A stretch of 64,000 nt of DNA from Actinomycetota bacterium (GCA_025355855.1 JANXYU010000031.1:1530-65529), one strand, 5' to 3'; shown: positions 270 to 42,320, counted from the stretch's first letter. Notes: generated by a model from the letters alone, not told the origin. Made by a program: numbers and translations.

Positions 270-302
270 GTCATCCTCGTACTCTTCGTACTCCTAGTAC
301 TA
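270..302 (-). repeat. 9-bp tandem repeat array at the obgE stop codon
   Basis: Plus-strand units gtcatc/gtactc/gtactc/gtacta start at 270, 279, 288 and 297. Confidence 0.7.
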
Positions 303-1304
303 GTCGCCCTTAATGTTATCAATCATGTCGGCGATGGCAAACTTTAGAGCGTCAACGCCTTCGCCTGTCGCCGCCGAGATCGCGTAGAACGGGATACCCC
401 GCTCAGCGAAAACCGCACGCATCGGCTCGATCGTCTCGCGGGCTTCCGGCAGATCGATCTTGCTACCGGCCGCGAGAACAGGCCGTTCACCCAGTTCAGT
501 ACTATACGATCCCAGCTCACCGGCAATCAGGTCATAGTCTCGCATCAGCGTGTCGACGTCGCCGACCGACAGGTCGACAATATGCACCAGGACCGTCGCG
601 CGTTCAACATGCCTGAGGAACTGGACGCCCATGCCCTTGCCTAAATGCGCGTTCTCGACCAAGCCAGGAATGTCCGCGACCACGAAGTCACGATCGTCGT
701 TTAGCCGCACCATGCCCAGATTCGGCGCTTTGGTTGTGAACGGATAGTCGCCAACCTTGGCTTTCGCAGTTGACATCCGGTTGATCAACGTTGATTTGCC
801 TGCATTCGGCAATCCGATCAAGGCCACATCCGCAAGTAATTTCAGTTCCAACGATATGTCGAATGGTTCTGTATCCTCTCCCGGCTGCGAGAACTTAGGG
901 CTGCGGTTCGTTGACGACGTAAAGTGCGCATTGCCTTTGCCGCCCCGACCGCCGGCCGCAATGACCGCTTCCTGCCCGATAGCCGTCAAGTCGGCCAGCA
1001 CATTACCGTCTTCGTTACGGATAACCGTCCCAACAGGTACCTTTACTAGTAGGTCTTCCCCATTCTTGCCGGTGCAGTTCTTGGCTTGCCCGTTGCCGCC
1101 GGCTTGGGCAAAAAAATGACGCTGATGGCGAAAATCCATCAACGTCTTTAATCCGGGATCAACTATGAAACGTACCGAGCCGCCGTGTCCGCCGTCGCCA
1201 CCGCTGGGACCTCCCAGCGGCTCGCCTTTTTCATGACGAAAAGCTACAACTCCGCTACCGCCGCGACCGCCCTTAACCGAAACATGCGCTTCGTCAACAA
1301 ACAT
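300..1304 (-). CDS. obgE: GTPase ObgE/CgtA
   Basis: MFVDEA N-terminus with the glycine-rich Obg fold, plus GLPNAGKS, FTT and DIPG G-motifs. Lies after rplU-rpmA. Confidence 0.98.
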   Translation of the reverse strand: MFVDEAHVSVKGGRGGSGVVAFRHEKGEPLGGPSGGDGGHGGSVRFIVDPGLKTLMDFRHQRHFFAQAGGNGQAKNCTGKNGEDLLVKVPVGTVIRNEDGNVLADLTAIGQEAVIAAGGRGGKGNAHFTSSTNRSPKFSQPGEDTEPFDISLELKLLADVALIGLPNAGKSTLINRMSTAKAKVGDYPFTTKAPNLGMVRLNDDRDFVVADIPGLVENAHLGKGMGVQFLRHVERATVLVHIVDLSVGDVDTLMRDYDLIAGELGSYSTELGERPVLAAGSKIDLPEARETIEPMRAVFAERGIPFYAISAATGEGVDALKFAIADMIDNIKGD

Positions 1305-1319
1305 ATGCGGTTTTGATTC

Positions 1320-1562
1320 CTATACTTCTTCGACGATATCTACCTTAGCGCCGTTGAAACTTACGAATCCCGCGCGCAGAGCGAACAGCGTGTGATCGTT
1401 ACCGATCCCGACACCGACGCCTGGTCGCAATTTTGTGCCGCGCTGGCGAACGATAATTGTGCCGGCCTTGACCTGCTGACCGCCATACGCCTTAACGCCG
1501 AGTCTTTTTGAATTACTGTCCCGACCGTTCCGAGAGCTGCCTAGCCCCTTCTTATGTGCCAT
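1320..1562 (-). CDS. rpmA: 50S ribosomal protein L27
   Basis: [24 protein letters not shown] signature. Confidence 0.99.
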
Positions 1563-1883
1563 TTAGCCTTGTCCCCTTGAAATGCTTTCAATCTTGACTT
1601 TGGTCAAATTCTGCCTGTGGCCTTGAGTCCTCTTGTAACCTTTCTTGGACTTATACTTGAAAACCAGTATCTTCGCGTCGCGATACTGCTCGACAACCGT
1701 CGCCTTAACGCTCGCTTTTTCCAAAGAGCTCGCGTCAGCCAGCGTTTCTTTATCTGTGCCTACCATCAGGACTTCGTCAAAAGTTACCGCCGCGCCGGGT
1801 TCCCCCGCCAGCTTCTCGATGTCAAGGGTTTCGCCTTCCTTGACCTTGTATTGTTTGCCCCCGGTTTTAATAACTGCGTACAT
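1563..1883 (-). CDS. rplU: 50S ribosomal protein L21
   Basis: MYAVIKTGGKQYKV ... GHRQ signature, with a GGAGG SD upstream. Confidence 0.99.
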   Translation of the reverse strand: MYAVIKTGGKQYKVKEGETLDIEKLAGEPGAAVTFDEVLMVGTDKETLADASSLEKASVKATVVEQYRDAKILVFKYKSKKGYKRTQGHRQNLTKVKIESISRGQG

Positions 1884-1921
1884 TAATACTCCTCCAAATC
1901 GAACAATTGCGTAACTAAATG

Positions 1922-1951
1922 ATTATAGAAGAAATGGGCGGGTCAACGCAA
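1922..1951 (-). promoter_or_regulatory. Putative sigma70-type promoter of rplU-rpmA-obgE
   Basis: TTGCGT-N18-TATAAT on the minus strand upstream of rplU. Confidence 0.4.
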
Positions 1952-1964
1952 GTCTGGCGTTGTT

Positions 1965-2606
1965 CTAGCCGATTAGATTGTCCCAAAGGAAGATGTGAGT
2001 GAATTCCGCCGGCGCTTTCTCTAGAATGGCGCGCTCAAGCGTCAACCACGCGACTACCAGATCGGGGTCCCACTGGCGATTTGCCCCGTCTTCCAGGCGG
2101 TTCAAAGCCATTGGAATAGACATCTTCGCGCGGTGCGGTCGATCGCTGGTCATGGCGTCAAAAGCGTCTGCGATAGACAAGATGCGGGCCCCTAATGGGA
2201 TGGCTGTTCGCGCCAAACCATCCGGATATCCGTGCCCGTTCCACCATTCGTGGTGGTGCAGGATGATTTCGGTCAGGCCGGCCGGGAAATTCAACGGCTC
2301 CAGGATGCTGATCGCGATCTTCGGGTGCTTCTGCATCTCCAGCTTCTCCTGCTCGTCCAAGACGCCCGGCTTATGCAAGACACTTTCTTCGATCGCAATC
2401 TGGCCGATATCGTGAAGCATGGCCGCGCGATATATAAGCTGAGTCTCTTCCTCTGCTACGGCGGCGATTTTTGCCAGCTCAACAGAGTACTCCGCGACCC
2501 GCAGGGAATGGCCGCGGGTAAAATGATCTTTGTGCTCGATGGCGATATTTAAGCTGCGGATAACATCCTCGACAGGGATTTTCCCGTTATTCGGCTGCGA
2601 TTCCAT
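1965..2606 (-). CDS. Stand-alone HD-GYP domain phosphohydrolase (putative cyclic dinucleotide phosphodiesterase)
   Basis: HSLRVA, HDIGQ, HHEWWNGHGYPDGL, RILSIADAFDAMTSDRP motifs. Confidence 0.9.
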   Translation of the reverse strand: MESQPNNGKIPVEDVIRSLNIAIEHKDHFTRGHSLRVAEYSVELAKIAAVAEEETQLIYRAAMLHDIGQIAIEESVLHKPGVLDEQEKLEMQKHPKIAISILEPLNFPAGLTEIILHHHEWWNGHGYPDGLARTAIPLGARILSIADAFDAMTSDRPHRAKMSIPMALNRLEDGANRQWDPDLVVAWLTLERAILEKAPAEFTHIFLWDNLIG

Positions 2607-3942
2607 TCACCACATCCCCATTCCCACTCTTCATGACATAGCCGTGGCCGCTGCAGGTCGGGCACTTCCCGGTAAAAGCCGCCAGCAATCCGGGCGTAAA
2701 ACTTTTACGAGTCATTTCTATCAACCCTAGCCGGGAAATCTCTACGACCTCGGTTTTGGCCCGATCCTGTTCCAAGACCTTTTCGAATTCTTCCAAGATA
2801 AGGTCTCGATCATTGGAACTGCCCATGTTGATGAAGTCGACGACGATCAATCCGCCGATATCTCGTAATCGGAGCTGGCGGCCGATCTCGTGTGCCGCTT
2901 CCAGGTTTGTCTTGAGAATCGTTTTATCAAGACTTACCTTGCCGACGTACCGACCCGTATTGACGTCTATCGACGTCAACGCCTCCGTGTCTTCTATTAT
3001 GATATAGCCGCCGCTTTTCAGCCATACTTTCGTGCGTAGAGCCTTCTCTATCTGCGGTTCGATCCCGTACTTCATAAAAAGCGGCTCACGGCGGTGGTAG
3101 CGGCGCACAACGCCGCCTCGGCTTGGATCGATATCCGTTATGTAGCTTTGAATCTGGTCGTATTTGGTTCGGTCGTCGACAACAATCCGCTTCACGTCAG
3201 GGCCGAAAACGTCCCGGATTATCTTCATTGCCAGGTCCATTTCGCTGTAAACGAGTGTGCTGGGGGTGGCCTTAGCCGCGTCTTTGCGGACCTTTTCCCA
3301 CAGTTCTTTCAGATACGCCAAGTCACCGATCAACGTCGGTTTGCTGATGTCGGCCGCCTGCGTCCGGATGATTATACCCATGCCTTCCGGTTTGATCTCC
3401 GCCGCGACTTTTTGCAGCCGCTCCCGTTCCTTGCCCTGAATACGGCGCGATATGCCGACGAAGTCTTTAAAAGGCGCCAGAACCATATAGCGGCTGGGCA
3501 GGGCGATCTGCGTCGTTAGCCGGGCTCCTTTGCTGCCGCTGGGCGCGCGCGTTACCTGAACCAATGTTGTTTGGCCCTTACGGACACCGATCTTGCCTTT
3601 CTTACGACGACCGCCCCGCACTTTGTTCTCGACGTCTTCAGTCTCCTCCTTGGGCAATGCTTCTTTGGTCAGGTCAAGACCTGCTTCGTCGCCCTCGCCG
3701 ATAATGTCGTCGGCAGACAGGAAAGCATTGCGTTGTTCGCCGATGTCAACAAACGCCGCCTCCATGCCCTGGAGCACATTCTGTATCCGGCCAAGATAGA
3801 TATTGCCAGTGATGTTGCCGGTGTCGCGCTTCTCGACATAAACTTCGGCCAGGTTCTTGCCGTCCAAGAGCGCCAGCTTTGTCTCCTCCGGCTCGACTGT
3901 GATAATAATCTGTTTTGTTCCATTGTTAGAGCTTAAGACCAT
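2587..3942 (-). CDS. Ribonuclease E/G family (short, RNase G-like)
   Basis: S1 domain GNIYLGRIQNVLQGMEAAFVDIG, followed by IDVNTG, LRDIGGLIVVDFI and the C-terminal CPTCSGHG. Confidence 0.95.
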   Translation of the reverse strand: MVLSSNNGTKQIIITVEPEETKLALLDGKNLAEVYVEKRDTGNITGNIYLGRIQNVLQGMEAAFVDIGEQRNAFLSADDIIGEGDEAGLDLTKEALPKEETEDVENKVRGGRRKKGKIGVRKGQTTLVQVTRAPSGSKGARLTTQIALPSRYMVLAPFKDFVGISRRIQGKERERLQKVAAEIKPEGMGIIIRTQAADISKPTLIGDLAYLKELWEKVRKDAAKATPSTLVYSEMDLAMKIIRDVFGPDVKRIVVDDRTKYDQIQSYITDIDPSRGGVVRRYHRREPLFMKYGIEPQIEKALRTKVWLKSGGYIIIEDTEALTSIDVNTGRYVGKVSLDKTILKTNLEAAHEIGRQLRLRDIGGLIVVDFINMGSSNDRDLILEEFEKVLEQDRAKTEVVEISRLGLIEMTRKSFTPGLLAAFTGKCPTCSGHGYVMKSGNGDVVNGIAAE

Positions 3943-4268
3943 TGGGATTGTCCCCCTACTTTGATCTTCCTAACCTCTCGGGCCCCCGTGATGCTGACCT
4001 CAGGTGGAAGATTACGATTTAAACGTTCGACGATGTCCCTGAGTGGTATTGGCAGGTCCAACGTGATATCTGCATTCTGTCCTTCTGATTCTACTCCTAC
4101 CGGCATGGCCGGGGTAACTGAAATCTTGGCGTGCGGGCGAAACCCTTGGGTCAAGGTAAGCGGCAGTTCGGCCCGGCGGCAGGCCCGCTCGAACAAGCGC
4201 ATGGTGTCTAAATGTGAGATGTACTTCAGCCGGCCTTTCTTGTCGAAGGTAACTCTTATCCTTGGCAT
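3933..4268 (-). CDS. TIGR03936/DUF2344-type radical SAM-associated protein (short, about 111 aa)
   Basis: Reads KKGRLKYISHLD..RACRRAELP..TQGFRPH from ATG at 4268. It is adjacent to a TIGR03960-like gene. Confidence 0.85.
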   Translation of the reverse strand: MPRIRVTFDKKGRLKYISHLDTMRLFERACRRAELPLTLTQGFRPHAKISVTPAMPVGVESEGQNADITLDLPIPLRDIVERLNRNLPPEVSITGAREVRKIKVGGQSQWS

Positions 4269-6025
4269 TCTATCCCGCAACCCGCGCAACCCGACAGACA
4301 GTCGATCGTCGTCGATGCCTCCAAAGCCTTTTCGTATTCTCCCCATAACCAGTCCTTTGACACACCGGGGGCGATGAAGTCCCACGGTAAGGCCTCGTCG
4401 GCTCCACGCGTTCGGTCGGTGATGTCTTCCAGCTTTAAGCCCTCGTCGGCGAACGCGGCCGTCCAAAGATCGAAGTCATAGTATTCGTGCCAGCTGTCAA
4501 AACGGGCACCGCGTTTATACGCCGCCTCTATTACTTTGCTCATCGAACGGTCGCCGCGCGCCAGCGCGCCTTCGAGTTTAGCCATCGTCGGCTCGTGCCA
4601 CTTGAAATTCAGATAGCTTTTCTTCAGTCGGTCGCGAAGATAATTATTCTTCTCGCGCAACGTCTCTAAGGTGTCTTGCCCGAACCACTGAAACGGGGTA
4701 TGCGCTTTGGGAATAAAGCTGGCCACGTTGATCGTGATGCCGACCCGGCCATGCTCATTCTTTGGAACAACGTCCATCGCCAAAGCGCGCAATTTGTAGG
4801 CGAGATCCACGATTCCGTCTAAGTCGTTTTGGGTCTCCGTCGGCAAACCGACCATAAAGTATAGCTTCAGCTTTCTCCAGCCGTTGCGGAAAGCAATTTC
4901 GGCGGTCCGCATGAGGTCTTCTTCAGTGACTCCCTTGTTTATCACGTCGCGCAAACGTTGCGTACCCGCCTCCGGCGCAAAAGTTAGCGATGTCTTCTTG
5001 CCGCCGCCAATAATATCGGCCAGCTCCACGGAAAAAGCGTCGACGCGTTGGCTGGGCAACGACACCGCGACCGCCTTTCGGCTCATCTCCCCGACCAATT
5101 CCTCGGTCGCGGCGACAATACCGGTGTAGTCGGTGCTGGACAGTGAAACCAATGAGACCTCGTTGTAGCCAGTGTTGGATAAACCCTCTCGCACCGCTTG
5201 CAGGACTGTCGGCACCGACCGTTCCCGGATCGGCCGATAGACCATGCCAGCTTGACAAAAACGGCAGGACCGGCCGCAGCCACGCATAATCTCAACCTGG
5301 AATCGGTCGTGGACGACTTCTAGATTCGGCACAGGCGGCCGGCACGGTGGCGGGAACGACCCTAAATCGGCGAGTATCCGGCGTTTGATGGGGCCCTGGG
5401 CTGAATCATACAAACTAGGAACATAGACGCCTTCTATGGCAGACAAGCGCCGGAGCTTCTCGCTCCTTGTACTATTTGTACTCTTCGAACTTCTCAAAAG
5501 ATCAACGACCTCTTGAATCACTTCTTCCCCGTCCCCAATAACGAACGCGTCAAAGAACGGCGCCAGGGGTTCAGGATTATAGACGCAGGGACCGCCGCCG
5601 ATAACAAGCGGTTCAGCCTCCGCCCGGTCGGCGGCGCGCAATGGGATACCGCCCAATTCGATTAACGCCAAAATGTTGCTGTAGTTAAGCTCGTATTGCA
5701 AAGTGATTCCCAGGATGTCGAAGTCGCGCAAGGGCCGCTGAGTTTCCAAAGACCACAACGGCGTCTCGGACGCGCGCAAGACCTGTTCCATGTCCGGCCA
5801 CGGCGAGAAGACGCGCTCACAGGCGGCACGAGGGTCACTATTGATGATGTCATAAAGAATGGTCAAGCCAAGATTGGGCATCCCGACCTCATAGGCGTCG
5901 GGATAGGCTAAACAGACGCTGACGTCAATATCGGCGAGCGATTTGGTAATAGAATTCCACTCCCGACCGACGTAGCGACCCGGCTTACGGACTGAACTTA
6001 ATAGGTTTTCGTGTTCAAACGTCAA
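4256..6025 (-). CDS. TIGR03960-type B12-binding radical SAM protein
   Basis: KPGRYVGRE, YPDAYEVGMPNLG, CGRSCRFC (CxxxCxxC) and APEAGTQRLR motifs. TTG start at 6025 is inferred from overlap with the upstream stop. Confidence 0.92.
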   Translation of the reverse strand: MTFEHENLLSSVRKPGRYVGREWNSITKSLADIDVSVCLAYPDAYEVGMPNLGLTILYDIINSDPRAACERVFSPWPDMEQVLRASETPLWSLETQRPLRDFDILGITLQYELNYSNILALIELGGIPLRAADRAEAEPLVIGGGPCVYNPEPLAPFFDAFVIGDGEEVIQEVVDLLRSSKSTNSTRSEKLRRLSAIEGVYVPSLYDSAQGPIKRRILADLGSFPPPCRPPVPNLEVVHDRFQVEIMRGCGRSCRFCQAGMVYRPIRERSVPTVLQAVREGLSNTGYNEVSLVSLSSTDYTGIVAATEELVGEMSRKAVAVSLPSQRVDAFSVELADIIGGGKKTSLTFAPEAGTQRLRDVINKGVTEEDLMRTAEIAFRNGWRKLKLYFMVGLPTETQNDLDGIVDLAYKLRALAMDVVPKNEHGRVGITINVASFIPKAHTPFQWFGQDTLETLREKNNYLRDRLKKSYLNFKWHEPTMAKLEGALARGDRSMSKVIEAAYKRGARFDSWHEYYDFDLWTAAFADEGLKLEDITDRTRGADEALPWDFIAPGVSKDWLWGEYEKALEASTTIDCLSGCAGCGIECQG

Positions 6026-6956: not shown

Positions 6957-8083
6957 TATATTGCCGCCCTTTCGGCCACGCCGCCGTAGCGGCGCATTGC
7001 CACACTGAGGACAAGCCCCAGGCTGATCATCGTCGTCAAGAACGAACTACCCCCATAGCTTATCAGAGGGAGCGGTATTCCCGTAACCGGCATGATGCCG
7101 ATGTTCATTCCGATATTGGTAAAAGCCTGAAATAGCAAAGAAGCGATGACGCCGGCGCAAATCAAGGTGCCGAACATATCGCGGCTGTTTAGAGCGATCT
7201 TGGCGATTCGCCACAGCAACAATCCGAACAAAGTAATAAGTATAAGGATGCCGATAAAACCAAGCTGTTCCCCCAGGACGGCAAAGATAAAGTCCGTGTC
7301 GCCATGCGGGATGAAGTTCAACCTGGTTTGGCTGCCCAGAAAGAGGCCGCGGCCAAAAAACTGGCCGGAACCGATAGCGATCTTGGCTTGCGTGATGTTA
7401 TACCCAGCCCCGGTCGGGTCACTCTGGGGGTTAAGGAAGACCAGCAACCGGTTCACTTGATACTGGTGCAGGATGTTAAGTTTGACCGCCAGAAACGCGC
7501 CAACAGCCGTCGCGCCGCCCAGACCGGCCAGCATCCAAAGATTAATGCCGGCGGCGTATAGAATTCCCACAGTAATGGCGCCAAAGACAAGGGCCGTACC
7601 CAGATCCGGCTGGATGAAGACAAGCAGAATGAATACCATCGCGTACGCGACGGCGATACCGATGTCCCGGTTGTTGGCGATTCCCTCCTTGCGCTTGCTG
7701 AGTAGTGCCGCCAACATGATGATCAGCGCGATTTTGGAGAACTCCGACGGCTGCAGGTTGAAGGGGCCGATCGGGATCCATCTCTGGGCTCCCAGGGCCA
7801 CCTTGCCAATGATAAAGACCATGACCAGCAGGACCATGCAAATGCCATAAAAAACACCGGAATAGGTCTTGAGCTTTAGGTAATCGAAACTAGCCGTGAC
7901 TGCCAGTCCAACCACCCCGACTACGATCCAGCCTAGCTGTAGACGCAGTTCGCTGAAACCAACGCTAGCCTGGGTCGCGCTATATATCAATAGTGCCCCG
8001 TAGGCGGCCAGCGCAAGAGTGAGAGCGATCAGAGGCCAATCAATATGGCGCAAAGGGTGCGAAGCAGGCAGCTTGCGCGCCAT
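6956..8083 (-). CDS. rodA: Rod shape-determining SEDS protein RodA
   Basis: AQRWI, LQPSEFSK, QPDLGT, HGDTDFIF and LPLISYGGSS motifs. Downstream of PBP2. Confidence 0.97.
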   Translation of the reverse strand: MARKLPASHPLRHIDWPLIALTLALAAYGALLIYSATQASVGFSELRLQLGWIVVGVVGLAVTASFDYLKLKTYSGVFYGICMVLLVMVFIIGKVALGAQRWIPIGPFNLQPSEFSKIALIIMLAALLSKRKEGIANNRDIGIAVAYAMVFILLVFIQPDLGTALVFGAITVGILYAAGINLWMLAGLGGATAVGAFLAVKLNILHQYQVNRLLVFLNPQSDPTGAGYNITQAKIAIGSGQFFGRGLFLGSQTRLNFIPHGDTDFIFAVLGEQLGFIGILILITLFGLLLWRIAKIALNSRDMFGTLICAGVIASLLFQAFTNIGMNIGIMPVTGIPLPLISYGGSSFLTTMISLGLVLSVAMRRYGGVAERAAI

Positions 8084-10000
8084 CTAATCCACCGTGCTTT
8101 CGATACGAATACTGGAATCAGACGTTAACCCGTACAGGTTATCGAATATCTTGCGCGCGACCGGGGCCGCCGCGGAAACTCCGTGGCCGCCCTCCTCGAT
8201 CATCACGATCACCACATACTGGGGTTTGTCTGCCGGCGCATAGGCCGCGAACCATGCGTTGGCTTGCTTGCCATAACTCTCGGCGCTGCCTGTCTTTGCC
8301 GCGATCGGGATGCTGTCTAAGGGAAAACCCTCAAACGCTGTCTTAGCCGTACCGTTCGAGACGACTTGTTGCAGATCATCTCGTACGATATTGAGAATCT
8401 CCGGATCAATGCCGACGTTGCGAACTTTATACGCCTTAACGTCCTTGACTACCTTTCCGGCCGGCGTCGTGATGCGTTTAACGATGTGCGGCCGGTAGAG
8501 CGTGCCACCGTTGGCGACCGCGGAGTACGCACAGGCCATCTGAAGCGGGGTCGCCAAAACATCGCCCTGGCCGATAGCCATATTTGTTGAATCGCCCGGA
8601 TACCAGATCTGATACTCGGGGTCGTTTTTGTTCCAGGTCTTTTTCCAGGCCTTGGTCGGGACCCGGCCGCCGTCTTCGCCCGGCAGATCGACGCCGGTTG
8701 GTTTGCCCAGTCCGAAACGATATAAGTAGTCCTGCATCTTCTCGCCCTTAACGCCGATGCTTTTATAAAACGCCAAGCCGATCTCGTAGAACACGGTATC
8801 GCAGGACTGAACGATGCCCTCGTTTAAGGTTAGTCTGCCGTGCCCCTCGGGCAGCCAGCAGAATTGAGGCCACTGGTCACCGGCGCCCGTCCACTTGCCG
8901 GTACAGTTGTATTCAGATTGAGACGAGGCGATTCCCTCTTGCATAGCCCCCGAGGCCATCATTGCTTTGATCGTTGATCCAGGAGGGAAGCTATTGGTCA
9001 CGGCCCGGTTATTCAAAGGATAGTGATTGGCGGGATCGTTGAGCGCTTTCCAGTCGGCCGCGGAAATGCCATTTGTAAACAAGCGCGGGTCATAAGACGG
9101 TTGGCTGGCCAAAGCGTAGATTTCCCCGTTGTTCGGATTCATGACAACAACCGCTCCCGCGGGCGCGTTGTAATCTTTCTTCGACGTTGGATCGTAGGCC
9201 TGCCGCGCCTGTTCCAGCGCTTGGGCCAGAAGGTTCTCGCTCAACGCCTGCAGATTGGTGTCGATCGTCATGGTGATATCTTTACCCGGGCTAGGCTTTT
9301 TCACGTCCATCGACGCCACCGGGTACCCGGCGGCGTTTACCTCGATGCGCTGTTTGCCGTTATTGCCCGCCAGCTCGTTTTCATATGAGAGCTCAACGCC
9401 TTCTCGGCCGATCACATCGCCTAAGTTGTATTTACTAAATTTCTTTTGTTTCAGCTCGTCACCTGTGACCTCGCCCAGATAGCCCAGGATATGCGCGCCG
9501 ACGTTGCCTTGCGGATACTCGCGTACAGGCTTGCCTTCGATGATGACGTGTGGAAATTCCAGTTGGTGTTCCTTGATGCTCACGGCTACCTGCTCAGAGA
9601 CGTCTTCCTTAATGGGAACAGGTTTATAGGGATCGATGTTCTTGTTTTCAAGACGCAATTTGACTTGTTCGGGCGTCATGCCCAGCGTGGCCGCTAATTT
9701 CTTGACGGTGTCTTTTTGTTGTCTGATGTCGTCGTCGCTCATCGCCGCTTGCACGTCTGTCATGGCGACTACGTAACTGGCGCGGTTGCCGATCATCAGC
9801 ACCCCATTGCGATCGTAGACGCCGCCGCGCACGGCGTCGATAGGCACCTCGCGAATCTTGTTTTCCGTGGCAATGGCTACGTACTCGCTACCCTTAATGA
9901 CCTGCAAAAATAGAAGGCGCGCGACGATAATGACGAAAGCGGCCAATATGGTGATTGAGATTACAGCCAAACGGCGTTCCGTCATCTCGTTTTCGTGCAC
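8084..10000 (-). CDS. mrdA: Penicillin-binding protein 2
   Basis: N-terminal TM helix, RGGVYDRNG, PPGSTIK (SxxK), SCD (SxN position) and AAKTGSAE (KTG). Confidence 0.96.
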   Translation of the reverse strand: MHENEMTERRLAVISITILAAFVIIVARLLFLQVIKGSEYVAIATENKIREVPIDAVRGGVYDRNGVLMIGNRASYVVAMTDVQAAMSDDDIRQQKDTVKKLAATLGMTPEQVKLRLENKNIDPYKPVPIKEDVSEQVAVSIKEHQLEFPHVIIEGKPVREYPQGNVGAHILGYLGEVTGDELKQKKFSKYNLGDVIGREGVELSYENELAGNNGKQRIEVNAAGYPVASMDVKKPSPGKDITMTIDTNLQALSENLLAQALEQARQAYDPTSKKDYNAPAGAVVVMNPNNGEIYALASQPSYDPRLFTNGISAADWKALNDPANHYPLNNRAVTNSFPPGSTIKAMMASGAMQEGIASSQSEYNCTGKWTGAGDQWPQFCWLPEGHGRLTLNEGIVQSCDTVFYEIGLAFYKSIGVKGEKMQDYLYRFGLGKPTGVDLPGEDGGRVPTKAWKKTWNKNDPEYQIWYPGDSTNMAIGQGDVLATPLQMACAYSAVANGGTLYRPHIVKRITTPAGKVVKDVKAYKVRNVGIDPEILNIVRDDLQQVVSNGTAKTAFEGFPLDSIPIAAKTGSAESYGKQANAWFAAYAPADKPQYVVIVMIEEGGHGVSAAAPVARKIFDNLYGLTSDSSIRIESTVD

Positions 10001-12876: not shown

Positions 12877-12937
12877 GTAGCTGCCGGTCTTTAAGACCGG
12901 CAGACGAGCCGGTGTCGACCCTAAAGACGACACCTAC
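12877..12937. repeat. Convergent REP doublet: class A on + (12877-12903) and class B-like on - (12911-12937)
   Basis: GTAG-CTGCCGGTC-TTTAA-GACCGGCAG on +, and GTAG-GTGTCG-N10-CGACAC on -. Confidence 0.8.
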
Positions 12938-29561: not shown

Positions 29562-30138
29562 TGGTGGAGGTGGCGGGACCTGGTGCCCCGGCGTTTGCGC
29601 CGGGCAGGGACTATGTCTTCATCCTCGATGTTGGTCGAGGAGCGAGGCGTATAATAGCCGTCTCAGATTTGCCTATTGGCACTGACAGCTATGTAAGTCT
29701 CTACAGGGCATCTCTACCCCTCGGCGTTGCCTTATCCCCTAAAAGGGACTTAGGGTTCACCGATGTAAGCCTCGTTTTCCGTGTGGCGTTACCGCCACAG
29801 GCGACCATTTTGTTGATCGAACCCGCGTCCTAAACGGCCTTAGTAAGAGCATCTTCGAGCGTAGTCCGCGATTTAATCTCGCCTTCCAACCCCCGCGGAC
29901 GGGGTTTAGTCGGCCATCCCGCTGGTTACCGCAAGCGTTAGCGGGAGTCCCGCTTTACGGTTTCCCACTTGTGACGCCAGGTCCTGAGCCGTGGGACTCC
30001 CAGGCTGACGACGCTACTTATTAAGCAGCGTAGGCTAGTTCAGTGTTGGCATTTATAGCCGTTCCGGTTGTTTAACGAGTACCAGCCCTCGGCTCGCTTC
30101 TCTTACCTCATCTGTCCAGTCGATACCTTTACACCCCC
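29562..30138 (-). ncRNA. ssrA: tmRNA interrupted by a group I intron in the T-loop; tag peptide (A)ANTELAYAA
   Basis: 5' GGGGGTG pairs with 3' CACCTCC-ACCA. Resume ORF GCC AAC ACT GAA CTA GCC TAC GCT GCT TAA at 30050-30021. Lies next to smpB. Removing 29579-29815 restores GCGGG-TTCGATT-CCCGC and gives a 340-nt RNA. Confidence 0.97.
29579..29815 (-). mobile_element. Group I self-splicing intron (237 nt, no ORF, IA-like with P7.1/P7.2)
   Basis: P1 CGAU^CA/UGGUCG with a U-G pair at the splice site; P3 CGAGGC/GCCUCG; P-like CAUCGGUGAAC; Q-like GGCAACGCCGAGG; R GUAGAGACU; S GAAGACAUAGUCC; P8; P9; terminal omega-G. Confidence 0.95.
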
Positions 30139-30283
30139 TTGCGCCGTCTCAAATTCTACGGTTACCTTAGAATTATCGTCGGGAAAAGTTTTGTGTGGTG
30201 TAATTGCCTGGTTGTCAAAGATCCTGACTTCTCGATTCGTCCGACTATGTCGGACTCACTTGAAGAGCCTTTTTGGTTGCCTT

Positions 30284-30316
30284 GTAATCCTTGTACTCTT
30301 CGTAATCTTCGTATTC
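30284..30316 (-). repeat. 9-bp tandem repeat array at the smpB stop codon
   Basis: gtaatc/gtactc/gtaatc/gtattc units start at 30284, 30293, 30302 and 30311. Confidence 0.75.
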
Positions 30317-30775
30317 CTATTTCCTAGGTTTGTGTTTTTCCTTGAAGGCGCGGGCGACGTCCCGTTTGGCTTCCTTTTCCGCGATCGTATGCCGCTTGTC
30401 GTACTGCGCCTTGCCCTTCCCCAGCCCCAGTTCCAGCTTGGCGAATCCGTGCTTGAAATATATCTTGAGCGGGATCAGCGTGTATCCTTTTTCCTTAACC
30501 CTGCCCGCCAATCGGTTGATCTCGGCCTTGTTAAGCAAGAGCTTCCGTTCCCGGGTCGGCTCCACATTAACGATGTTGCCTTGCTCATATGGACTGATGT
30601 GGAGGTTGTTGATGAAAACCTCGCCGTTCTTTATCCGCCCGAAGCCGTCTACCAAGTTTGCCCGACCAGCGCGCAGAGACTTGACCTCGGTGCCGGTCAG
30701 CACCATGCCGGTTTCGTAAGTCTCTTCGATGAAGTAATCGTGATAGGCTTTGCGGTTCGTGGCGACGGTTTTCAA
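30317..30775 (-). CDS. smpB: SsrA-binding protein SmpB
   Basis: [21 protein letters not shown] and [10 protein letters not shown] motifs. TTG start at 30775 follows GGAG/GAGG. Confidence 0.98.
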
Positions 30776-30783
30776 AAGACCTC

Positions 30784-32154
30784 TTACTCCATTATAGCAC
30801 TTGGACTCGACGTTTCCGGTTCCGCAGATGCGCCGCCGAACGCCAGCCAGGCCAGGAAGAAGAACGATATCGCGTAGTAAAAGTAGTTGTTGTGAGTGAA
30901 ATACGAAAAGACAATGAAAACGAGCGTTGTAATCGCGGAGGCCAGCATCACGATTTGCAGTGTGTTCCGCCGGCGCTGCCACCATAATAGCAGGGCCATC
31001 AGAGGCGCCAGGAAGACGATGTAAAAGATTTGCGACGGGAACGAACTACCGGCGTTTTTGACTAGCCCCATGTGCAAGGCGATTGCGCTGGCAGTCCAGC
31101 CGTCGATGTGGGCGCCGTTCTTGGTCAGGCCGTTCGGATATTTAACGATGTCGTTGATGAAATGCCCCGGGCTCCACAAGAAGAATGGCACCGCGAAGAC
31201 AAGAATCATCACGCCCAAGATAAGAACAGTGATCGCCAAAGGTGTCAGTTTTCCGTCCGACCCGCGCACCCAGCCGCTATCCTTGATATGTTGGCCGGCC
31301 ACGTAAAGCAGATAGAAAGGCAGAACAAGCAACATGAACTGCTTGGACAGTAGGCTCATTCCGAAGAACACCGCGGACCAACCGTAGCGACGCTTCGTCA
31401 GGAATAACAGTGACAGAACAAGGCCGGTCATCGCCGCCACCTCATTTGAACCGGCGACAAAATAGAAGACCACATCGGGATTGAGACCGAAGACGATCAT
31501 CATCGCCAGTTTGGATTCCCTCGTCGGCGCGAGCCGGTACAAGGCCCAGAGCAACAGGAAGAATATCGGCAGATAAACAAACCTCAGGTCAAAATAGCCG
31601 ACCGTATAGTGCACAAAAAGATAACCCGGCAGAGGCATCAGGAAGGTCATGGGGAGATAGACATAGTGCTCCAGCGGGCCGGCGGTCTCTCCCGCCATAT
31701 GAGCCATCGGTGTGTTGTAGTAGGTCTGACTGTACGGGTTTTGCCCATGCAGCAGCATCTTCATGGCCTCTTCCGTCTGAACGGCTGAGTCCATAATGCG
31801 ATGGCTGGGACCGGCGACATAACGGCCGCCAATGCTTAGACTCATCGGCCCGATGACGGTCAACGCGATCAAGACCCCCAGTATCGTCAACTTGGCCGCG
31901 TGCCTGCGCCGGGCGTTGCTCAAAAAGAACTCAGTCATGAGATACCCAGCGACCAGCAGGATAACCAACATAGCGTCAATATGTAGCAGCAGATCGGCGG
32001 TCCGGTTCGCCGGTGTGACGTAACGGATGTACCACAAAGACATGGTAAACATCAGCACCAGAAGACCTGTATCGATAGAGATGTTTAGGGGCTTAGGGTC
32101 GGCCACAACCGACTCCGCTTGCACTTTGGGGTCATTTGTCATGCTGATTATCAT
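30784..32154 (-). CDS. Multi-pass membrane glycosyltransferase, GT-C fold (GT87/DUF2029-like)
   Basis: Many TM segments, with [28 protein letters not shown] and KQF motifs. Confidence 0.65.
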
Positions 32155-32593: not shown

Positions 32594-32619
32594 CTGCCGG
32601 TCTGAAGACCGGCAGCTAC
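32594..32619 (-). repeat. GTAG-type REP, class A
   Basis: Minus strand reads GTAG-CTGCCGGTC-TTCA-GACCGGCAG. Confidence 0.85.
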
Positions 32620-35661: not shown

Positions 35662-35686
35662 CCTTGCATACGAGTCTTACTCCTAT

Positions 35687-37352: not shown

Positions 37353-37736
37353 GATATTCACGGCACAGGCGTCGACCTTATCGAAATAGACAGAATCCGG
37401 CAAATCATCGAGCGTTTCGGCGGCAAAGTACTAGCCCGCGTATTCAGCCCGCGCGAGATAGCCTATGCGGCCGACAAGGCAAACCCATATCCTCATCTGG
37501 CTGCGCGGTTCGCCGCCAAAGAGGCGTTTATCAAAGCGCTGGCCCCGTTGCCGATCGCGAAAGTCAATCTCAGGGATATCGAACTGGTTGCGGCGGAAGG
37601 AATGGTCAAACCGGAGATCGTGTTATATGGACCCGCGGCGGCATTGTTCTCGAGCGCTGAACTTGGCAACATAATGGTCAGCGTGTCGCACAGCCGGACC
37701 TATGCCATAGCGACGGTGACTTTGCTAAGACGGTGA
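37350..37736 (+). CDS. acpS: Holo-ACP synthase
   Basis: GTGVDLIE, LAARFAAKEAFIKAL and VSVSHS motifs. Confidence 0.96.
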   Translation: MDIHGTGVDLIEIDRIRQIIERFGGKVLARVFSPREIAYAADKANPYPHLAARFAAKEAFIKALAPLPIAKVNLRDIELVAAEGMVKPEIVLYGPAAALFSSAELGNIMVSVSHSRTYAIATVTLLRR

Positions 37737-37745
37737 CTTTGCTAA
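37712..37745. repeat. Perfect 17-bp tandem duplication spanning the acpS stop
   Basis: gacggtgactttgctaa x2. Confidence 0.9.
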
Positions 37746-37760
37746 AAGAGATAGCGCGCC

Positions 37761-38681
37761 CTAAAGCATCTCGCGGGCGGCGGCTGCGATCTCGTCGGCG
37801 GTGATACCGAAGAACGCGAACAATTCCTCGTAGGGCGCCGATTTACCATAGCGGTCCGCCAGTCCGACCCGGCGCAACGGCGTCGGCAGATTCTCGCCCA
37901 AAACCTCAGCCACAGCTCCGCCTAAACCACCGATAACGGAATGCTCCTCGGCCGTGACCACATGCCCGGTCTTAGCGGCTGAGGCAATGATGGTATCCTC
38001 GTCCAAGGGTTTGATGGTCGCCGCGTTTATTACCTCGGCGCTGATCCCGTCTTCCGCCAGCGCCTCGGCGGCGTCCAAGGCCATCTTGACAGTTATGCCG
38101 CAGGCCACGAGGGTTACGTCCTCGCCCGGCCGCAGCACTTCCGCCTGCCCTAACTCGAATCTATAAGACTCGTCATAGACAAACGGAACCTTAGGCCGCC
38201 CGATGCGTATGAAGACTGGTCCCTCAAGGGCGGCGGCCGCTCGCAGCATTTCGGCGGCTTGCCAGTAATCGGCCGGCACCAATATTTTCATTGTCGGTAA
38301 CATGCGCAACAGCGCGATGTCCTCGAATGTCTGGTGAGTCGCCCCATCCTCACCGACGCTGATGCCAGCGTGGCTGGAGCAGATTTTCACATTCAGATTG
38401 GCATAGCATGTGACGTTGCGCAGTTGGTCCCAGGCCCGGCCCACTGTGAAGACGGTAAAACCACCCACAAAAGCTGTTTTGCCGGCGGCGGCCAGACCAT
38501 TCGCCGTGCCGATCATATTTTGTTCCGCGACACCGCAATCAAAGAACCGGTCGGGATAAAGGGCGGCGAATTTGTCCAGTCCCGTCGATTTAGCCAAGTC
38601 GGCATCGAGCGCCACAATGTCGGCGCCTCGTTGGGCGAGTTCTATGAGTACGGCCGGGATGGCTTCGCGCGTGGCTTTCAT
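37761..38681 (-). CDS. Transketolase, C-terminal subunit
   Basis: DADLAKST, GVAEQNM, GEDGATHQ and EEHSVIGGLG motifs. Start forms an ATGA overlap with the N-terminal subunit. Confidence 0.95.
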   Translation of the reverse strand: MKATREAIPAVLIELAQRGADIVALDADLAKSTGLDKFAALYPDRFFDCGVAEQNMIGTANGLAAAGKTAFVGGFTVFTVGRAWDQLRNVTCYANLNVKICSSHAGISVGEDGATHQTFEDIALLRMLPTMKILVPADYWQAAEMLRAAAALEGPVFIRIGRPKVPFVYDESYRFELGQAEVLRPGEDVTLVACGITVKMALDAAEALAEDGISAEVINAATIKPLDEDTIIASAAKTGHVVTAEEHSVIGGLGGAVAEVLGENLPTPLRRVGLADRYGKSAPYEELFAFFGITADEIAAAAREML

Positions 38682-39541
38682 GCCCCCACCTCCGGTACGC
38701 ATGATAATTCTGCCAAGGCTTGCCTTAGCTCGTCGTCATTGGGAGCTTTACCGTGCCAGTCCGCTTTGTTTTCCATGAATGACACGCCCTTGCATTTTAC
38801 TGTGCGGGCCAAAATAACGGTCGGTTTGCCGTGCATCATGTCGGCTTCTTTCAAGGCGTCCTCAATTGCGATGACGTCGTGGCCGTCGACCTCAAGGACA
38901 TGCCATCCGAAAGCGCGCCATTTGTCCTTTAATGGCTGGACCTCGACAATATCGCTGACGTGCCCGTCTATCTGCAGATTGTTGTAATCGACAAAAGCGG
39001 TGACCCGGTCGAGCTTGTGGTGGGCACCGAACATCGCTGCCTCCCAGATCATGCCCTCTTGGCTCTCGCCGTCACCGATCAGAACATAAACGCGATAGTC
39101 GCGGCCATCGATGCGTCCGGCCAGCGCCATCCCATTGGCGGCGCTCAACCCCTGCCCCAAAGAGCCGGATGTGATGTCAACACCAGACACCTTATTCATG
39201 TCCGGGTGACCTTCCAGTCGGCTGTCCAATTGGCGTAAGCCCTGCAGGTCCTGAAGGGGGAAATACCCATTCTCCGCCAGCGCCGCGTACAATACGGGGG
39301 CCGCATGACCTTTGCTTAGGACGAACCGGTCCCGATCGGGATCCCGGGGATTCTTGGGATCTTGGCGCATATGATGGAAATATAGGACGGCCACAATGTC
39401 GGCGGCCGACAAAGAACCGCCCGGGTGACCTGACTTGGCTCGGCCAATCATCTCCAGACAATGGCGGCGCAGCGTTAGGGCGCGCTCTTCCAAGTAGCGT
39501 TTGAGATCGCCGCGGCTCAAATCCTTAGTTGCTGCCATCAT
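38678..39541 (-). CDS. Transketolase, N-terminal (TPP-binding) subunit
   Basis: SGHPGGSLS, LSKGH, GSLGQG and GDGESQEG..N motifs. Confidence 0.95.
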   Translation of the reverse strand: MMAATKDLSRGDLKRYLEERALTLRRHCLEMIGRAKSGHPGGSLSAADIVAVLYFHHMRQDPKNPRDPDRDRFVLSKGHAAPVLYAALAENGYFPLQDLQGLRQLDSRLEGHPDMNKVSGVDITSGSLGQGLSAANGMALAGRIDGRDYRVYVLIGDGESQEGMIWEAAMFGAHHKLDRVTAFVDYNNLQIDGHVSDIVEVQPLKDKWRAFGWHVLEVDGHDVIAIEDALKEADMMHGKPTVILARTVKCKGVSFMENKADWHGKAPNDDELRQALAELSCVPEVGA

Positions 39542-40337
39542 TTATCCCCGCCTTAATGAAATCAAAATTGTTTATCTTAGCGTCTATAAGCGCCTGGCCC
39601 GGCTGGAGGGTTATCTTGCTCAACTCGATGCCGTCCGGAATGTCGTATAACTTGTAGTCGACCGTGAACGCGTCCCGCAGATAATCCTGAATGTCCTGCG
39701 GCAGACCCAGTTTCTCAATCGTCCCGGCCAGAGGTTGCAACTGAATCGTATTGTCCGGCTTCACGATGATCAAACCTGGGACGTCCACAACCACACCGGG
39801 CATTAACGTCGAGATATCGTCCTGGTACCGAAAACGGTTCCGCTCAAGCTTGATTGTCGCCCCCGGCAAACGAGCTGCCACAAGTCGGTTAACGGCTTCT
39901 TCTGATAATACTATTCGGGCGCTGCCAGAGTCTAGACTCTTCAGCGCCGATAATTGACGAGTTTTGGCCAGTGACCAAAAATCAACCTTGACTCCCTTGA
40001 CGTCAAAGTGCGCCTTTTGCACGTTGAGACCGTATTTCATCTTGAAACCTTCGACATCCAGGCTTATCTCGTCAACGCGGCCCTGGAACAATCTAACGAT
40101 GATCGGGTGCATTGTTAGAGTGACGCTCGAGGGCATATCCGGTTTTAATATCTCATCTACCTGAGTGGCGGCCAAGGCTTCCGTCTTATAGGTAATGGTG
40201 TATTCCAAAGCCAGGCTAAGCACCGCCAAAACGCTGAGGATAATAAGTGTCGTCGCCAGGTTGCGACGCCAGTTGCTCTGGCCGGATCCCGGCGTTTGCT
40301 TTTTGGCCGTCTGCTTGATCGGTTCGGCCGCCGTCAT
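39525..40337 (-). CDS. DUF2993/LmeA-like membrane-anchored protein
   Basis: Single N-terminal TM helix followed by a beta-rich domain (RLFQGRVDEISL..., ARIVLSEEAVN). Confidence 0.55.
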   Translation of the reverse strand: MTAAEPIKQTAKKQTPGSGQSNWRRNLATTLIILSVLAVLSLALEYTITYKTEALAATQVDEILKPDMPSSVTLTMHPIIVRLFQGRVDEISLDVEGFKMKYGLNVQKAHFDVKGVKVDFWSLAKTRQLSALKSLDSGSARIVLSEEAVNRLVAARLPGATIKLERNRFRYQDDISTLMPGVVVDVPGLIIVKPDNTIQLQPLAGTIEKLGLPQDIQDYLRDAFTVDYKLYDIPDGIELSKITLQPGQALIDAKINNFDFIKAGINDGSN

Positions 40338-41056
40338 TGGGTCTCCCTTTTGGAGCGGAGAAAACGCATAACGCGATCAGGATCCGTGTTGATTATCCGC
40401 TCCGCCCCGAAACCGATAGCCGTCGCCTCGGCCTCGGCTTGTTCGAATCCGCCGACCAACGAAGCTAAATGCGCGTCGCTGCCTAGGATGATGTCCAGGC
40501 CTGACTCGAAGGCCGCTCGCGCCACCTCGCGGGTCATCTCCTCCCCGCCCGGCCGGCTCTTCACAAAGCTGCTGTTGTTTATCTCCAGCAATACGTTATT
40601 GCGCCCAGCGGCCTCAACGATCCGCTCGGAATCGATTGGAAACCAGGGGTTGCCCGGGTGCGCCAAGATATGAACGTTCGGGTTGCTCATCGCTCTAATC
40701 AGGACATCCGTATTCTGCGCGGCATTGCCGGGCTCGTAACCGCACAACGGGTGCAGACCGACCAGGACAACATCCAGCTGACGCAGCGAGTCATTATCAA
40801 GGTCAAGTTCACCTTTAGCATTGACGATATTCGCTTCCACGCCTGTCAAGATTCGTACACCTTTGATTTCATCGGGCAGAATCCTCATGTTCCAGAAGTG
40901 ATACTCGTGCGCCCCGCCTGGCAGGGCCGGCCCGTGGTCGGTTACAGCCATTATCTTAAGGCCTCGCTCAGCGGCCGCCGCGGCGTTCTCATATACGGTG
41001 CTGTAAGCGTGCCCGCTGGCCACGGTGTGGGTATGCAAGTCGACTAAGAAGTCCAT
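40334..41056 (-). CDS. PHP domain phosphatase (YcdX-like)
   Basis: DLHTHT..SGHAYST, TDHG, GVEAN, AHP, LEINN and GSDAH motifs. Confidence 0.93.
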   Translation of the reverse strand: MDFLVDLHTHTVASGHAYSTVYENAAAAAERGLKIMAVTDHGPALPGGAHEYHFWNMRILPDEIKGVRILTGVEANIVNAKGELDLDNDSLRQLDVVLVGLHPLCGYEPGNAAQNTDVLIRAMSNPNVHILAHPGNPWFPIDSERIVEAAGRNNVLLEINNSSFVKSRPGGEEMTREVARAAFESGLDIILGSDAHLASLVGGFEQAEAEATAIGFGAERIINTDPDRVMRFLRSKRETQ

Positions 41057-41078
41057 TGGGCTCTCTGTAAAACCGGAA

Positions 41079-41185
41079 GATTATTGGGATTATAAAGAGT
41101 ATCATGATTATGAAAACCATTTGGACATGGTGTTTTGAATCGCATAATCCTTATAATCCCCATACTCCTTATACTCCCTTAACTC
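41079..41185. repeat. Two inverted arrays of 9-bp repeats (4 units on +, 5 units on -) between prfB and the PHP gene
   Basis: GATTAT/GAGTAT units start at 41079, 41088, 41097 and 41106. Complementary units start at 41144, 41153, 41162, 41171 and 41180. Confidence 0.75.
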
Positions 41186-42270
41186 TTGTTAGATACGCTT
41201 CAATAAACGGGTCTAGATTCCCGTCCATCACCTTTTGGATATCACCAGTTTCGGCATCCGTGCGATGATCCTTAACCATTTGATACGGGTGAAATACATA
41301 CGACCTGATTTGACTGCCGAAAGCGATGTCGCTCATGGCGCCGCGCAGGGCCGCCACCTTCTTCTCTTGCTCTTCGCGGCGCAGATTGAAAAGGCGGGCT
41401 TTCAGGATCTTCAGCGCGCCTTGCTTGTTCTTTAACTGACTGCGCTCATTCTGACACTGCACAACCAGGCCGGTGGGAATATGGGTTATCCGGACGGCCG
41501 AGTCGGTCTTGTTGACATGCTGGCCGCCAGCGCCGCTGGCCCGATAGGTGTCGATGCGCAGGTCCTCCGGCTTAATCTCTATGTCAGTGTCTTCTTCAAC
41601 AATCGGTATCACGTCCACCGAAGCAAATGAGGTGTGTCGTCGTTTGGCCTGGTCATAAGGGGAAATTCGGACCAGACGGTGGACGCCCTTTTCCCCATCC
41701 AACATCCCGAAAGCGTAGCGGCCGTGAATGGACAAGGTGACGCTCTTGAGGCCCGCTTCGTCGCCTACTAGATAGTCATTGATCTCAACCTTGAAGCTCT
41801 TCTTCTCCGCCCACATCACATACATGCGCAAAAGCATCTCAGCCCAGTCTTGACTCTCCGTGCCGCCGGCTCCCGGGTGAATACTCATCAGAGCGTCATT
41901 GCCGTCGTACCGTCCGGAGAAATGGCTTTGAATCTCTAACCGGTTGACTTCCGCCGCCAGTGTCTCTAGCTCACGCTCGAGTTCATCCGATAAAGCGGCG
42001 TCCTCCTCCACCAGATTCATCTCATTCAAGCCGGCCAGATCGGCGGCAGCCTGCTGGAGATGTTCGAAAAGAACAACCTCGCTTTCCAGCTGAGATAGTT
42101 CGCTGGTAACCTTACGAGCGTTGTCCGGGTCGTCCCAAATGTTGGGAGCGGCCGCAAGCTTACGGAGAGCGGCGACGCGGTCTACCTTACCAGCCAGGTC
42201 AAAGATAATCCTTGAGCTTGACTATCTTATTAGTAATATCATCTATGTCTTGCTTATGGTCTACATGCAT
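41169..42270 (-). CDS. prfB: Peptide chain release factor 2 with a programmed +1 frameshift
   Basis: ATG at 42270 gives MHVDHKQ...KDYL, then CTT-TGA-C at 42204-42198, continuing DLAGK..IWDD. SPF-like SPY motif and GGQ are present. Confidence 0.96.
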
Positions 42271-42287
42271 TTGGTTTTGGTTTCCTT

Positions 42288-42320
42288 GTACTCTTAGTAC
42301 ACATTGTAATCCTCGTAATC
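42288..42320 (-). repeat. 9-bp tandem repeat array just after the secA stop
   Basis: gtactc/gtacac/gtaatc/gtaatc units start at 42288, 42297, 42306 and 42315. Confidence 0.75.

Follow-up and report, generated by a model that had tools for sequence, protein, structure and literature searches.

Phased nonamer arrays at gene ends of an Actinomycetota genome as probable arms of palindromic intergenic repeats

A 64,000-nt stretch of the genome of an Actinomycetota bacterium (GCA_025355855.1, JANXYU010000031.1:1530-65529; hereafter the window) carries short tandem arrays of 9-nt units, the hexamer GAKTAY followed by three further bases, at the 3' ends of obg (obgE), smpB, prfB and secA. What are these arrays, and why do they recur at gene ends? 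The window corresponds to C1:1530-65529 of a 1.34-Mb, 55% GC genome in 35 contigs, referred to here as the source genome (G000). Scanning the window for (GAKTAY N3)x3 with at most two mismatches gave 11 overlapping matches, against 0.02 expected from dinucleotide shuffles. The five arrays reported by a first-pass annotation were each recovered by this detector (Table 1; the match at obg spans 270-302), and Pfam assigned the four upstream genes to Obg, SmpB, RF2 and SecA, as that annotation had named them. We argue below that the arrays are probably the arms of genus-restricted, non-coding, palindromic intergenic repeats resembling REPINs (paired repetitive extragenic palindromes, REPs) or miniature inverted-repeat transposable elements (MITEs), each arm presenting a recognised hexamer at a 9-nt register.

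The window arrays belong to a genome-wide family. A strict detector requiring at least three phased GAKTAY hexamers found 48 arrays in the source genome and none in five Markov-3 shuffles, so their frequency is not explained by base composition; an explanation by composition would have undone the original suggestion. A relaxed GANYAY detector found 47 arrays, with none in Markov shuffles and 5 in the reversed genome, and the union of the two detectors comprises 51 arrays at 35 loci. The family unit is not a lone tandem array, as first described, but an inverted array pair: the basic unit is an imperfect palindrome of ~95 nt, laid out as a stop codon, four nonamers (GAKTAT+RRG), GAAAACC, a unique loop, GGTTTTC, four inverted nonamers and 10-36 nt leading to the next start codon. 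The loops of the 15 facing pairs are 14-81 nt long; loops and outer flanks are unique, and the GAAAACC/GGTTTTC clamp is held in common. T-type arms (GAKTAT + RRG) contain exactly four units in 27 of 32 cases and nearly always form a plus-then-minus pair, 14-81 nt apart. C-type arrays (GAKTAC + RAR) usually consist of three units and a GATGAC unit, running on into ATGGSCGTAAAACC, and are frequently single sense arms; those at obg, smpB and secA are of this type. A C-type variant with GAGCAC/GAACAC hexamers prevails in a sister species of the same genus (G001).

The array reported as inverted against that of prfB illustrates the palindromic unit. It is indeed inverted, but it is the second arm of one palindromic element, with no convergent gene attached: the PHP-domain gene that starts at 41056, 22 nt beyond the end of this arm, lies on the prfB strand, and the two arrays are therefore arms of one palindrome in a co-directional spacer. 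Convergent genes are likewise ruled out as a general explanation of facing arrays, since the pairs sit between co-directional genes. The prfB stop codon (TAA, 41169-41171) falls within the first arm, leaving about two units inside the coding sequence, as had been claimed.

What is conserved in these elements is the hexamer register and not the stem. Across 185 units G1, A2, A5 and Y6 are nearly invariant, and K3 splits about 50:50 between G and T; position 4 accounts for 20 of the 29 mismatches that the detector allowed, its T being replaced by C or A (chi-square P ~1e-9). The spacer triplet is mostly AAG, AAA, AGG, GAA or GAG. Each arm is made of four direct 9-nt units without an internal dyad and is palindromic only as part of an arm pair. 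The prfB element folds with -33.4 kcal/mol (z = -3.0) and the 15 pairs with dG of -19 to -41 kcal/mol (z -1.5 to -8.4); folding is possible since the positions that do not vary in one arm are complementary to those in the other. For arms of the same element the identity is 0.735, for arms of different elements 0.751 (0.40 versus 0.49 at the free positions). When G-U pairs are allowed, the free positions pair in register at 0.538 within elements and at 0.619 +/- 0.026 once arms are swapped, and none of 2000 permutations gave a value as low as that observed; the same held for the other strand, Watson-Crick only. Selection for a perfect hairpin is ruled out, since arms of the same element are no more alike than others and, compared with swapped arms, pair a little less well. 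It is the phased motif and the four-unit count that are maintained, and not the stem; perfect palindromes are if anything avoided. An earlier proposal had been that the arrays form a protein- or RNA-binding signal, serving termination among other roles. The invariant hexamer positions and the fixed unit count are compatible with a putative binding platform; termination, mRNA stability and DNA phasing, the roles suggested for it, gained no support, and no intrinsic-terminator-like sites were predicted at the window elements, including those of prfB and secA.

Placement follows a tight rule. By crude longest-ORF (open reading frame) calls, 92% of the source genome is coding, and 32 of the 35 loci are nevertheless intergenic (P ~1e-32). 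Tandem spacers hold 29 of these and convergent spacers 3; divergent spacers, for which 3.2-5.3 would be expected, hold none (P = 0.003-0.03); the suspected bias toward gene 3' ends thus extends across the genome. Relative to the stop codon on the same strand, sense arms start at -18 to +24 nt; most do so 0-17 nt after it, and seven begin at the first base past it. The sister species obeys the same rule, with several arrays starting exactly at +1 after the stop. Single arms, a class assigned by eye in which some members have decayed partners (C27:33198, C23:5479), are sense to the upstream gene in 14 of 15 cases, the exception being C11:19904; this bias agrees with the sense orientation noted in the window. 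No tie to housekeeping genes as such was found: any gene end qualifies. Two junctions hinted that a stop codon within 'GAK-TAR' seeds the array, but the phase of stop and array generally does not fit. The placement rule is equally expected from purifying selection after untargeted insertion into a genome so largely coding.

We compared the source genome with 40 relatives, among them the sister species and a genome of the same family (G002). The four-unit pattern matched 41 times in the source genome, 6 times in the sister species and once in the same-family genome; the other 38 genomes of the phylum gave none except for a coding repeat in one of them (G026). The match in the same-family genome is coding low-complexity sequence near the N-terminus of an ORF that follows an ECF-sigma-like gene, and the source-genome orthologue has no array; it is ruled out as an ancestral member. 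By these pattern searches, which stand in for aligned junctions in the outgroup, the family appears to be restricted to one genus of a deep actinobacterial lineage. Pattern scans of genome and metagenome contig collections returned, among the matches listed, only scattered unrelated ones.

Thirty-two array-bearing junctions of the source genome were compared with the nearly whole sister-species genome, the coding flanks being ~75-92% identical. At clean empty junctions the genes of the sister species overlap (ATGA or TAATG) or abut, and the source genome has 60-140 extra nt between the stop codon and the Shine-Dalgarno (SD) sequence and start codon. Such presence/absence polymorphism was seen at loci 5, 6, 12, 20, 28, 30 and 31 and at secA. 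At prfB, C16:68598, C20:31499 and C23:5479 a T-type element in the source genome faces a C/H-type element at the same junction in the sister species. Clearly orthologous elements, with divergence like that of the coding flanks, occur at loci 7, 11 and 14 and at obg, where the sister-species stop codon lies within the array. Still other junctions hold unrelated repeats in the sister species, including a palindrome of the GACCACAGA type and a CGTC-headed REP (cgtcattgcgagg...gaagcaacctcc). The core of that REP is present in 9 copies in the source genome and 50 in the sister species, the inverse of T-type abundance. The dispersal proposed at the outset is real: the family is abundant in one species, sparser in its sister and absent from 38 other genomes, with clean empty sites in the sister. 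Empty sites, variant subtypes and unrelated repeats at sister-species junctions show that the family has proliferated and is subject to turnover, with some spacers serving as shared landing slots. The comparison shows copies that have multiplied to ~35 loci in this lineage and are absent at several sister-species junctions.

Several observations on these repeats stand apart from the argument. The CGTC-headed REP (ggttgcttcg...ctcgcaatgacg / cgtcattgcgagg...gaagcaacctcc; e.g. G000:C2:37150-37200) fills sister-species junctions 3, 4, 10, 15, 18 and 23, which carry T-type elements in the source genome. Palindromes resembling GACCACAGA / GACCACACG occupy sister-species junctions 21 and 29 (C33 ~4240-4340; C16 ~71720-71830), GAKTAY sites in the source genome; they may form a second nonamer family, and a strict three-unit search found no arrays. 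The longest and most regular array, (GAGTAC AAG GAATAC AAG) x ~3, is at G000:C11:19904-19953 (-), antisense between two plus-strand genes. Among 13 T-type pairs of the source genome, the outermost hexamer is GAG in 8 of the 13 stop-proximal arms and GAT in 11 of the 13 start-proximal arms, an asymmetry relative to the direction of transcription.

The anatomy of the window elements is given in Table 1. At obg the stop codon (TAG, 300-302) shares the phase of the array, the next triplets being TAC TAG and then the units; the module beyond the array (ATGGGCGTAAGC) recurs behind many C/H-type arrays in both species. The smpB stop codon (TAG, 30317-30319) abuts the first hexamer of its array, in phase, and the secA stop codon (TAA, 42328-42330) lies 7 nt ahead of its array in a different frame. 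The common ending that had been noted for the smpB and secA arrays, TACAAGG[C/A]AACCAAAA, is present.

Table 1. Genes, arrays and associated repeats in the window (coordinates counted from its first nucleotide).
Feature	Position	Strand	Sequence or basis
Obg gene	300-1304		Pfam
SmpB gene	30317-30985		Pfam
RF2 (prfB)	41169-42029 + short frameshifted first ORF		Pfam
SecA gene	42328-44952		Pfam
C-type array 3' of obg	270..299	-	TAC TAG GAGTAC GAA GAGTAC GAG GATGAC (minus-strand reading)
Inner module ATGGGCGTAAGC beyond obg array	258..269	-	extends C-type consensus GATGAC-ATGGSCGTAAAACC
C-type array 3' of smpB, 4 units	30284..30316	-	GAATAC GAA GATTAC GAA GAGTAC AAG GATTAC
Inner clamp AAGGCAACCAAAAAGG of smpB array	30268..30283	-	common to secA array
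T-type element 3' of prfB, arm 1 (sense)	41144..41185	-	GAGTTA AGG GAGTAT AAG GAGTAT GGG GATTAT AAG GATTAT
Loop of prfB element	41112..41143	-	clamp CAAAAC...GGTTTTC
prfB element, arm 2	41079..41111	+	GAKTAT x4 on plus strand = inverted in prfB transcript
C-type array 3' of secA, 4 units	42288..42320	-	GATTAC GAG GATTAC AAT GTGTAC TAA GAGTAC
Inner clamp AAGGAAACCAAAACCAA of secA array	42271..42287	-	extends to prfB start codon at 42270
Duplicated GTAG-headed REPs (GTAGCTGCCGGTCTTTAGACCGGCAG) downstream of RAYT-like gene	45002-45025, 45123-45146	-	

The secA-prfB spacer is wholly filled by the secA array and its clamp, up to the prfB ATG. Within prfB, a programmed +1 frameshift site, CTT TGA C, lies at 42198-42204 (-), 24 codons past the ATG (42268-42270), and is kept in the sister species. 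Rfam called a tmRNA at 29814-30130 (-), just downstream of the smpB array, where ARAGORN made no call; only this tmRNA and tRNAs exceeded the Rfam threshold in the window. An exact-protein look-up of the PHP-domain gene product returned no record.

Searches of the literature turned up no account of palindromic repeats with nonamer phasing. Among published repeats the nearest analogue is formed by the GGGAATC / GGGGA(C/T)T heptamer arrays that occur in Xanthomonas and Nostoc and are related to the cyanobacterial STRR (short tandemly repeated repetitive) sequences (Rehm et al., 2015; PMC4692102). Like the GAKTAY arrays, the heptamer arrays are built of short tandem units with a preference for four copies. 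They concentrate between ORFs of like orientation, are depleted from divergent spacers and from the interior of genes, and lie in sense no more than 50 bp after a stop codon or overlapping it, or in antisense no more than 50 bp upstream of an ORF. They also form inverted pairs, neighbour genes of all functional classes, have no linked mobile element and are unexplained. The two differ in period (9 versus 7), in core (AT-rich GAKTAY versus a G-tract), in the confinement of the GAKTAY arrays to one genus with a 1.3-1.4 Mb genome, and in unit number, which is nearly fixed in the GAKTAY arrays versus 2 to 26. The GAKTAY + RRG unit contains at most one GG step, and many C-type units contain none, falling short of the G-tracts that a G-quadruplex requires; by its sequence the family cannot form G-quadruplexes, and its preference for four units needs another explanation. 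The GAKTAY family is therefore distinct from the heptamer arrays in period and composition.

REP superfamilies are described as tagged at one end by a GTAG or CGTC tetranucleotide (PMC3733652). The GAKTAY elements resemble REPs and REPINs as small extragenic repeats at gene 3' ends, as ~100-nt inverted doublets able to form a hairpin, with singlets too, and in their lineage-specific expansion; they also share spacers with true REPs. Their arms differ in being tandem nonamers instead of 20-40-nt palindromes, with unique outer flanks, no GTAG or CGTC head and no excess of arm complementarity; the RAYT-like gene of the window (RAYT, REP-associated tyrosine transposase) is flanked instead by a classical GTAG REP. 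With MITEs (Correia/NEMIS, ERIC, RUP) and Rickettsia palindromic elements they have in common a ~100-bp insert that is palindromic and non-autonomous, orthologous sites that may be filled or empty, the donation of stop codons, promoter-like boxes and coding residues, and an occasional in-frame insertion (C26:8231). The 33-nt inverted arms, ~74% identical, correspond to MITE-type terminal inverted repeats. They differ from MITEs in that no clear target-site duplication and no parent insertion sequence (IS) was found, the internal sequence is unconserved and the terminal 'inverted repeats' are internally periodic. The mycobacterial interspersed repetitive units (MIRUs) of actinobacteria are, like the GAKTAY elements, intergenic operon repeats that are oriented with transcription and touch stop and start codons; they are 40-100-bp direct tandem units with small coupling ORFs, unlike inverted nonamer arrays.

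In the reading we favour, a trans-acting protein, possibly a tetramer, would recognise the phased hexamers and copy or convert the element. Purifying selection in the densely coding genome would leave survivors only where they do no harm, in spacers of co-directional genes between the stop codon of one and the ribosome-binding site of the next. Single arms may be tolerated only in sense, where they are purine-rich and carry the SD-like AAGGAG; inverted, they would place an anti-SD-like CUCCUU beside a start codon. An inserted element would be co-transcribed, would be able to fold as an imperfect hairpin, and would incidentally provide its neighbours with stop codons, a few C-terminal residues, SD sequences and TATAAT-like boxes. 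Instances of each kind of contribution were found. The prfB stop codon is supplied by the element, and at C1:100027 the element encodes the C-terminus ...EYKDY* (protein ending at C1:100042). Sense arms contain ~2 SD-like motifs each, and at C31:34642 the last unit, AAGGAG, is the SD of a GTG start, where the sister species has an ATG directly after the stop. Promoter-like -35/-10 pairs, formed by the TTTTCA clamp and TATAAT units, face downstream in 6 of 15 elements and upstream in 6 of 15, against 3% of random windows. Their equal occurrence in both directions gives no sign of directional selection, and a directional portable promoter is rejected on this ground; the pairs are a by-product of the sequence.

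Two coding loci were observed besides these. At G000:C26:8231-8263 (-), within the ORF 7526-9349, a nonamer array and a CGTC REP ~100 nt further on are both in frame (...KQDYKEYKEHEEHEATN...GEVASGEVAS...RHSVIASDSEAN...), resembling the in-frame insertions of Rickettsia palindromic elements. At G000:C8:92467-92499 (+) a GAGTAC array lies near the end of a 728-aa ORF, in another frame that gives K-S-T repeats; the sister-species orthologue has a similar three-residue periodic tail (NSTRKTGGTRKTGKT) with different codons, and the array may have been co-opted as coding sequence.

Several results weigh against a mobile, protein-copied element. No mobilising enzyme came to light, and no gene framed by inward-facing arrays, as an autonomous parent would be, was found in the source genome or its sister, though the source genome is 91% complete and a partner gene could be missing. 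PDDEXK_3 (PF13366) is absent from G000, G001 and G002 with the search controls working, and the PF05635 four-helix-bundle family is absent from the source genome, the array-richest one. The RAYT-like Y1_Tnp gene that adjoins secA (45296-45754, minus strand; syntenic in the sister species, as a RAYT would be) has GTAG REPs (GTAGCTGCCGGTCTTTAGACCGGCAG) at its flanks and no arrays. At eight filled/empty junctions no clear direct repeat marks a target-site duplication, although a short one may have decayed, the flanks there being ~80-88% identical between the species. At least 12 of ~30 junctions hold the same superfamily in both species, far above independent random insertion, and this shared occupancy could mean that the elements are old, conserved and functional, or that copies convert one another. 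Every copy has its own loop and free positions, unlike the members of a recent copy-and-paste MITE family, and the positions that do not vary might serve the host as well as recognition for mobility. In the same searches, TIGR04258 gave no match, the control genomes being equally without one. The single PF05635 copy of the sister species is framed by TTCATAG repeats, not GAKTAY; it is a 23S-rRNA-IVP / Avd-like four-helix-bundle gene at G001:C35:5255-5572 (+), inserted in a sugar-nucleotide operon with TTCATAG / CTATGAA repeats around it.

In an alternative that we consider possible though not probable, the arrays are a functional host cis-element and their spread is secondary. An oligomeric protein bound to DNA or RNA, or the ribosome acting through the SD-like AAGGAG, would stabilise the 3' end of the upstream mRNA, insulate operon neighbours or couple termination to re-initiation. 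The strong constraint on four of six hexamer positions, the fixed unit count, the tight placement past stop codons replicated in two species, the orthologous obg array, the co-occupancy of junctions far above chance, the SD-like motifs of sense arms (with the last unit serving as the SD in some spacers) and the strong sense bias of single arms would all suit such a role. It is harder to reconcile with neighbour genes that are functionally unrelated, with several sister-species junctions where the element is missing and the genes overlap instead, with entirely different repeat families at other junctions, and with the absence of the family from the sister genus and all other relatives searched. 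The promoter-like hexamer pairs, lacking directional selection, and the absence of any terminator-like U-tract also tell against it. A coding role is very improbable. Here the arrays would be decayed or conditionally translated tails, adding (D/E)-Y-(K/E) repeats to C-termini by stop-codon read-through or frameshifting. The units do read GAK TAY RRG, that is, Asp/Glu-Tyr-Lys/Arg/Glu/Gly; the arrays of obg and smpB follow a TAG in frame, seven arrays start right after a stop codon, and arrays occur in frame within the long ORF at C26:8231 and in the same-family genome's gene. The frames relative to the upstream ORF are nevertheless mixed (13/9/7 in a hand tally including smpB; hand-computed chi-square P ~0.4), which rules out coding tails: the arrays of prfB and secA lie out of frame, and that of smpB, in frame in the source genome, is out of frame in its sister. 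Half of all arms are inverted, upstream of start codons, and cannot be tails, and in-phase stop codons occur in inverted arms as well, as expected from a T followed by RR in the spacer. Mixed frames and inverted arms together contradict the read-through reading.

It is also improbable, if less so than a coding role, that the arrays are accessory motifs or preferred targets of a RAYT/REP system, like the extra motifs of the bacterial interspersed mosaic elements (BIMEs) of E. coli, and are spread by its Y1 transposase. The RAYT-like gene beside secA counts in favour of this explanation; TTAC and GTAC, contained in GATTAC and GAGTAC, resemble the tetranucleotide targets of IS200/IS605-type enzymes and may point the same way. 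A GTAG REP lies within 110 nt on the same strand at 4 of 17 C/H-type arrays in the sister species (P ~6e-8), and another follows the obg array of the window at 193-219. Against these associations, 0 of 18 C/H arrays of the source genome have an adjoining REP in a strict test, and its T-type pairs are not beside REPs; the flanks of the RAYT-like gene carry GTAG REPs only. The arms, moreover, are tandem repeats and not hairpins with a GTAG or CGTC head, and array abundance does not follow Y1_Tnp copy number, G002 having three such genes and no arrays. The RAYT-like gene and the GTAG REPs look like a classical RAYT/REP system, apart from the nonamer arrays, and GTAG and CGTC REPs coexist in the source genome as separate families. 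Further REP copies in the window lie at 12877-12901 and 32596-32619, and a second palindrome, GGCGCCGACCTGAAGGTTGGCGCC, lies downstream of the RAYT-like gene. A second Y1 transposase gene, G000:C4:25446-25775 (-), has an open frame of ~295 aa and ~30-bp inverted repeats (CCAAGGGGTCACGTCTTGTATCTTAACATC) in an IS200-like layout, with no counterpart in the sister species.

Returning to the palindromic repeats themselves, small intergenic repeats are usually explained by hairpins (REPs, terminators) or by G-quadruplexes (heptamer arrays). Here the phased hexamer is conserved and the complementarity of the stem is not, which points to a protein reading the 9-nt register. More tentatively, and with some doubt, the GAKTAY arrays may belong to a broad class of prokaryotic repeats, so far undescribed, whose arms of four phased nonamers would serve as docking platforms for an oligomeric protein that places one subunit on each 9-nt unit and copies or converts the elements without RAYT or IS transposases. 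If so, that machinery would have left its signature in the four-unit count, in the positions that do not vary, in arms that avoid complementarity and in the replacement of one subtype by another at the same junctions. For annotation, gene ends, short C-terminal extensions, SD sites and TATAAT boxes created by the elements are to be expected in this lineage. In the two sister species different repeat families have expanded reciprocally at identical junctions, which marks these spacers as permissive 'landing slots', and a reader of the 9-nt register, if one exists, would offer a new handle on the spread of tiny repeats in streamlined genomes.

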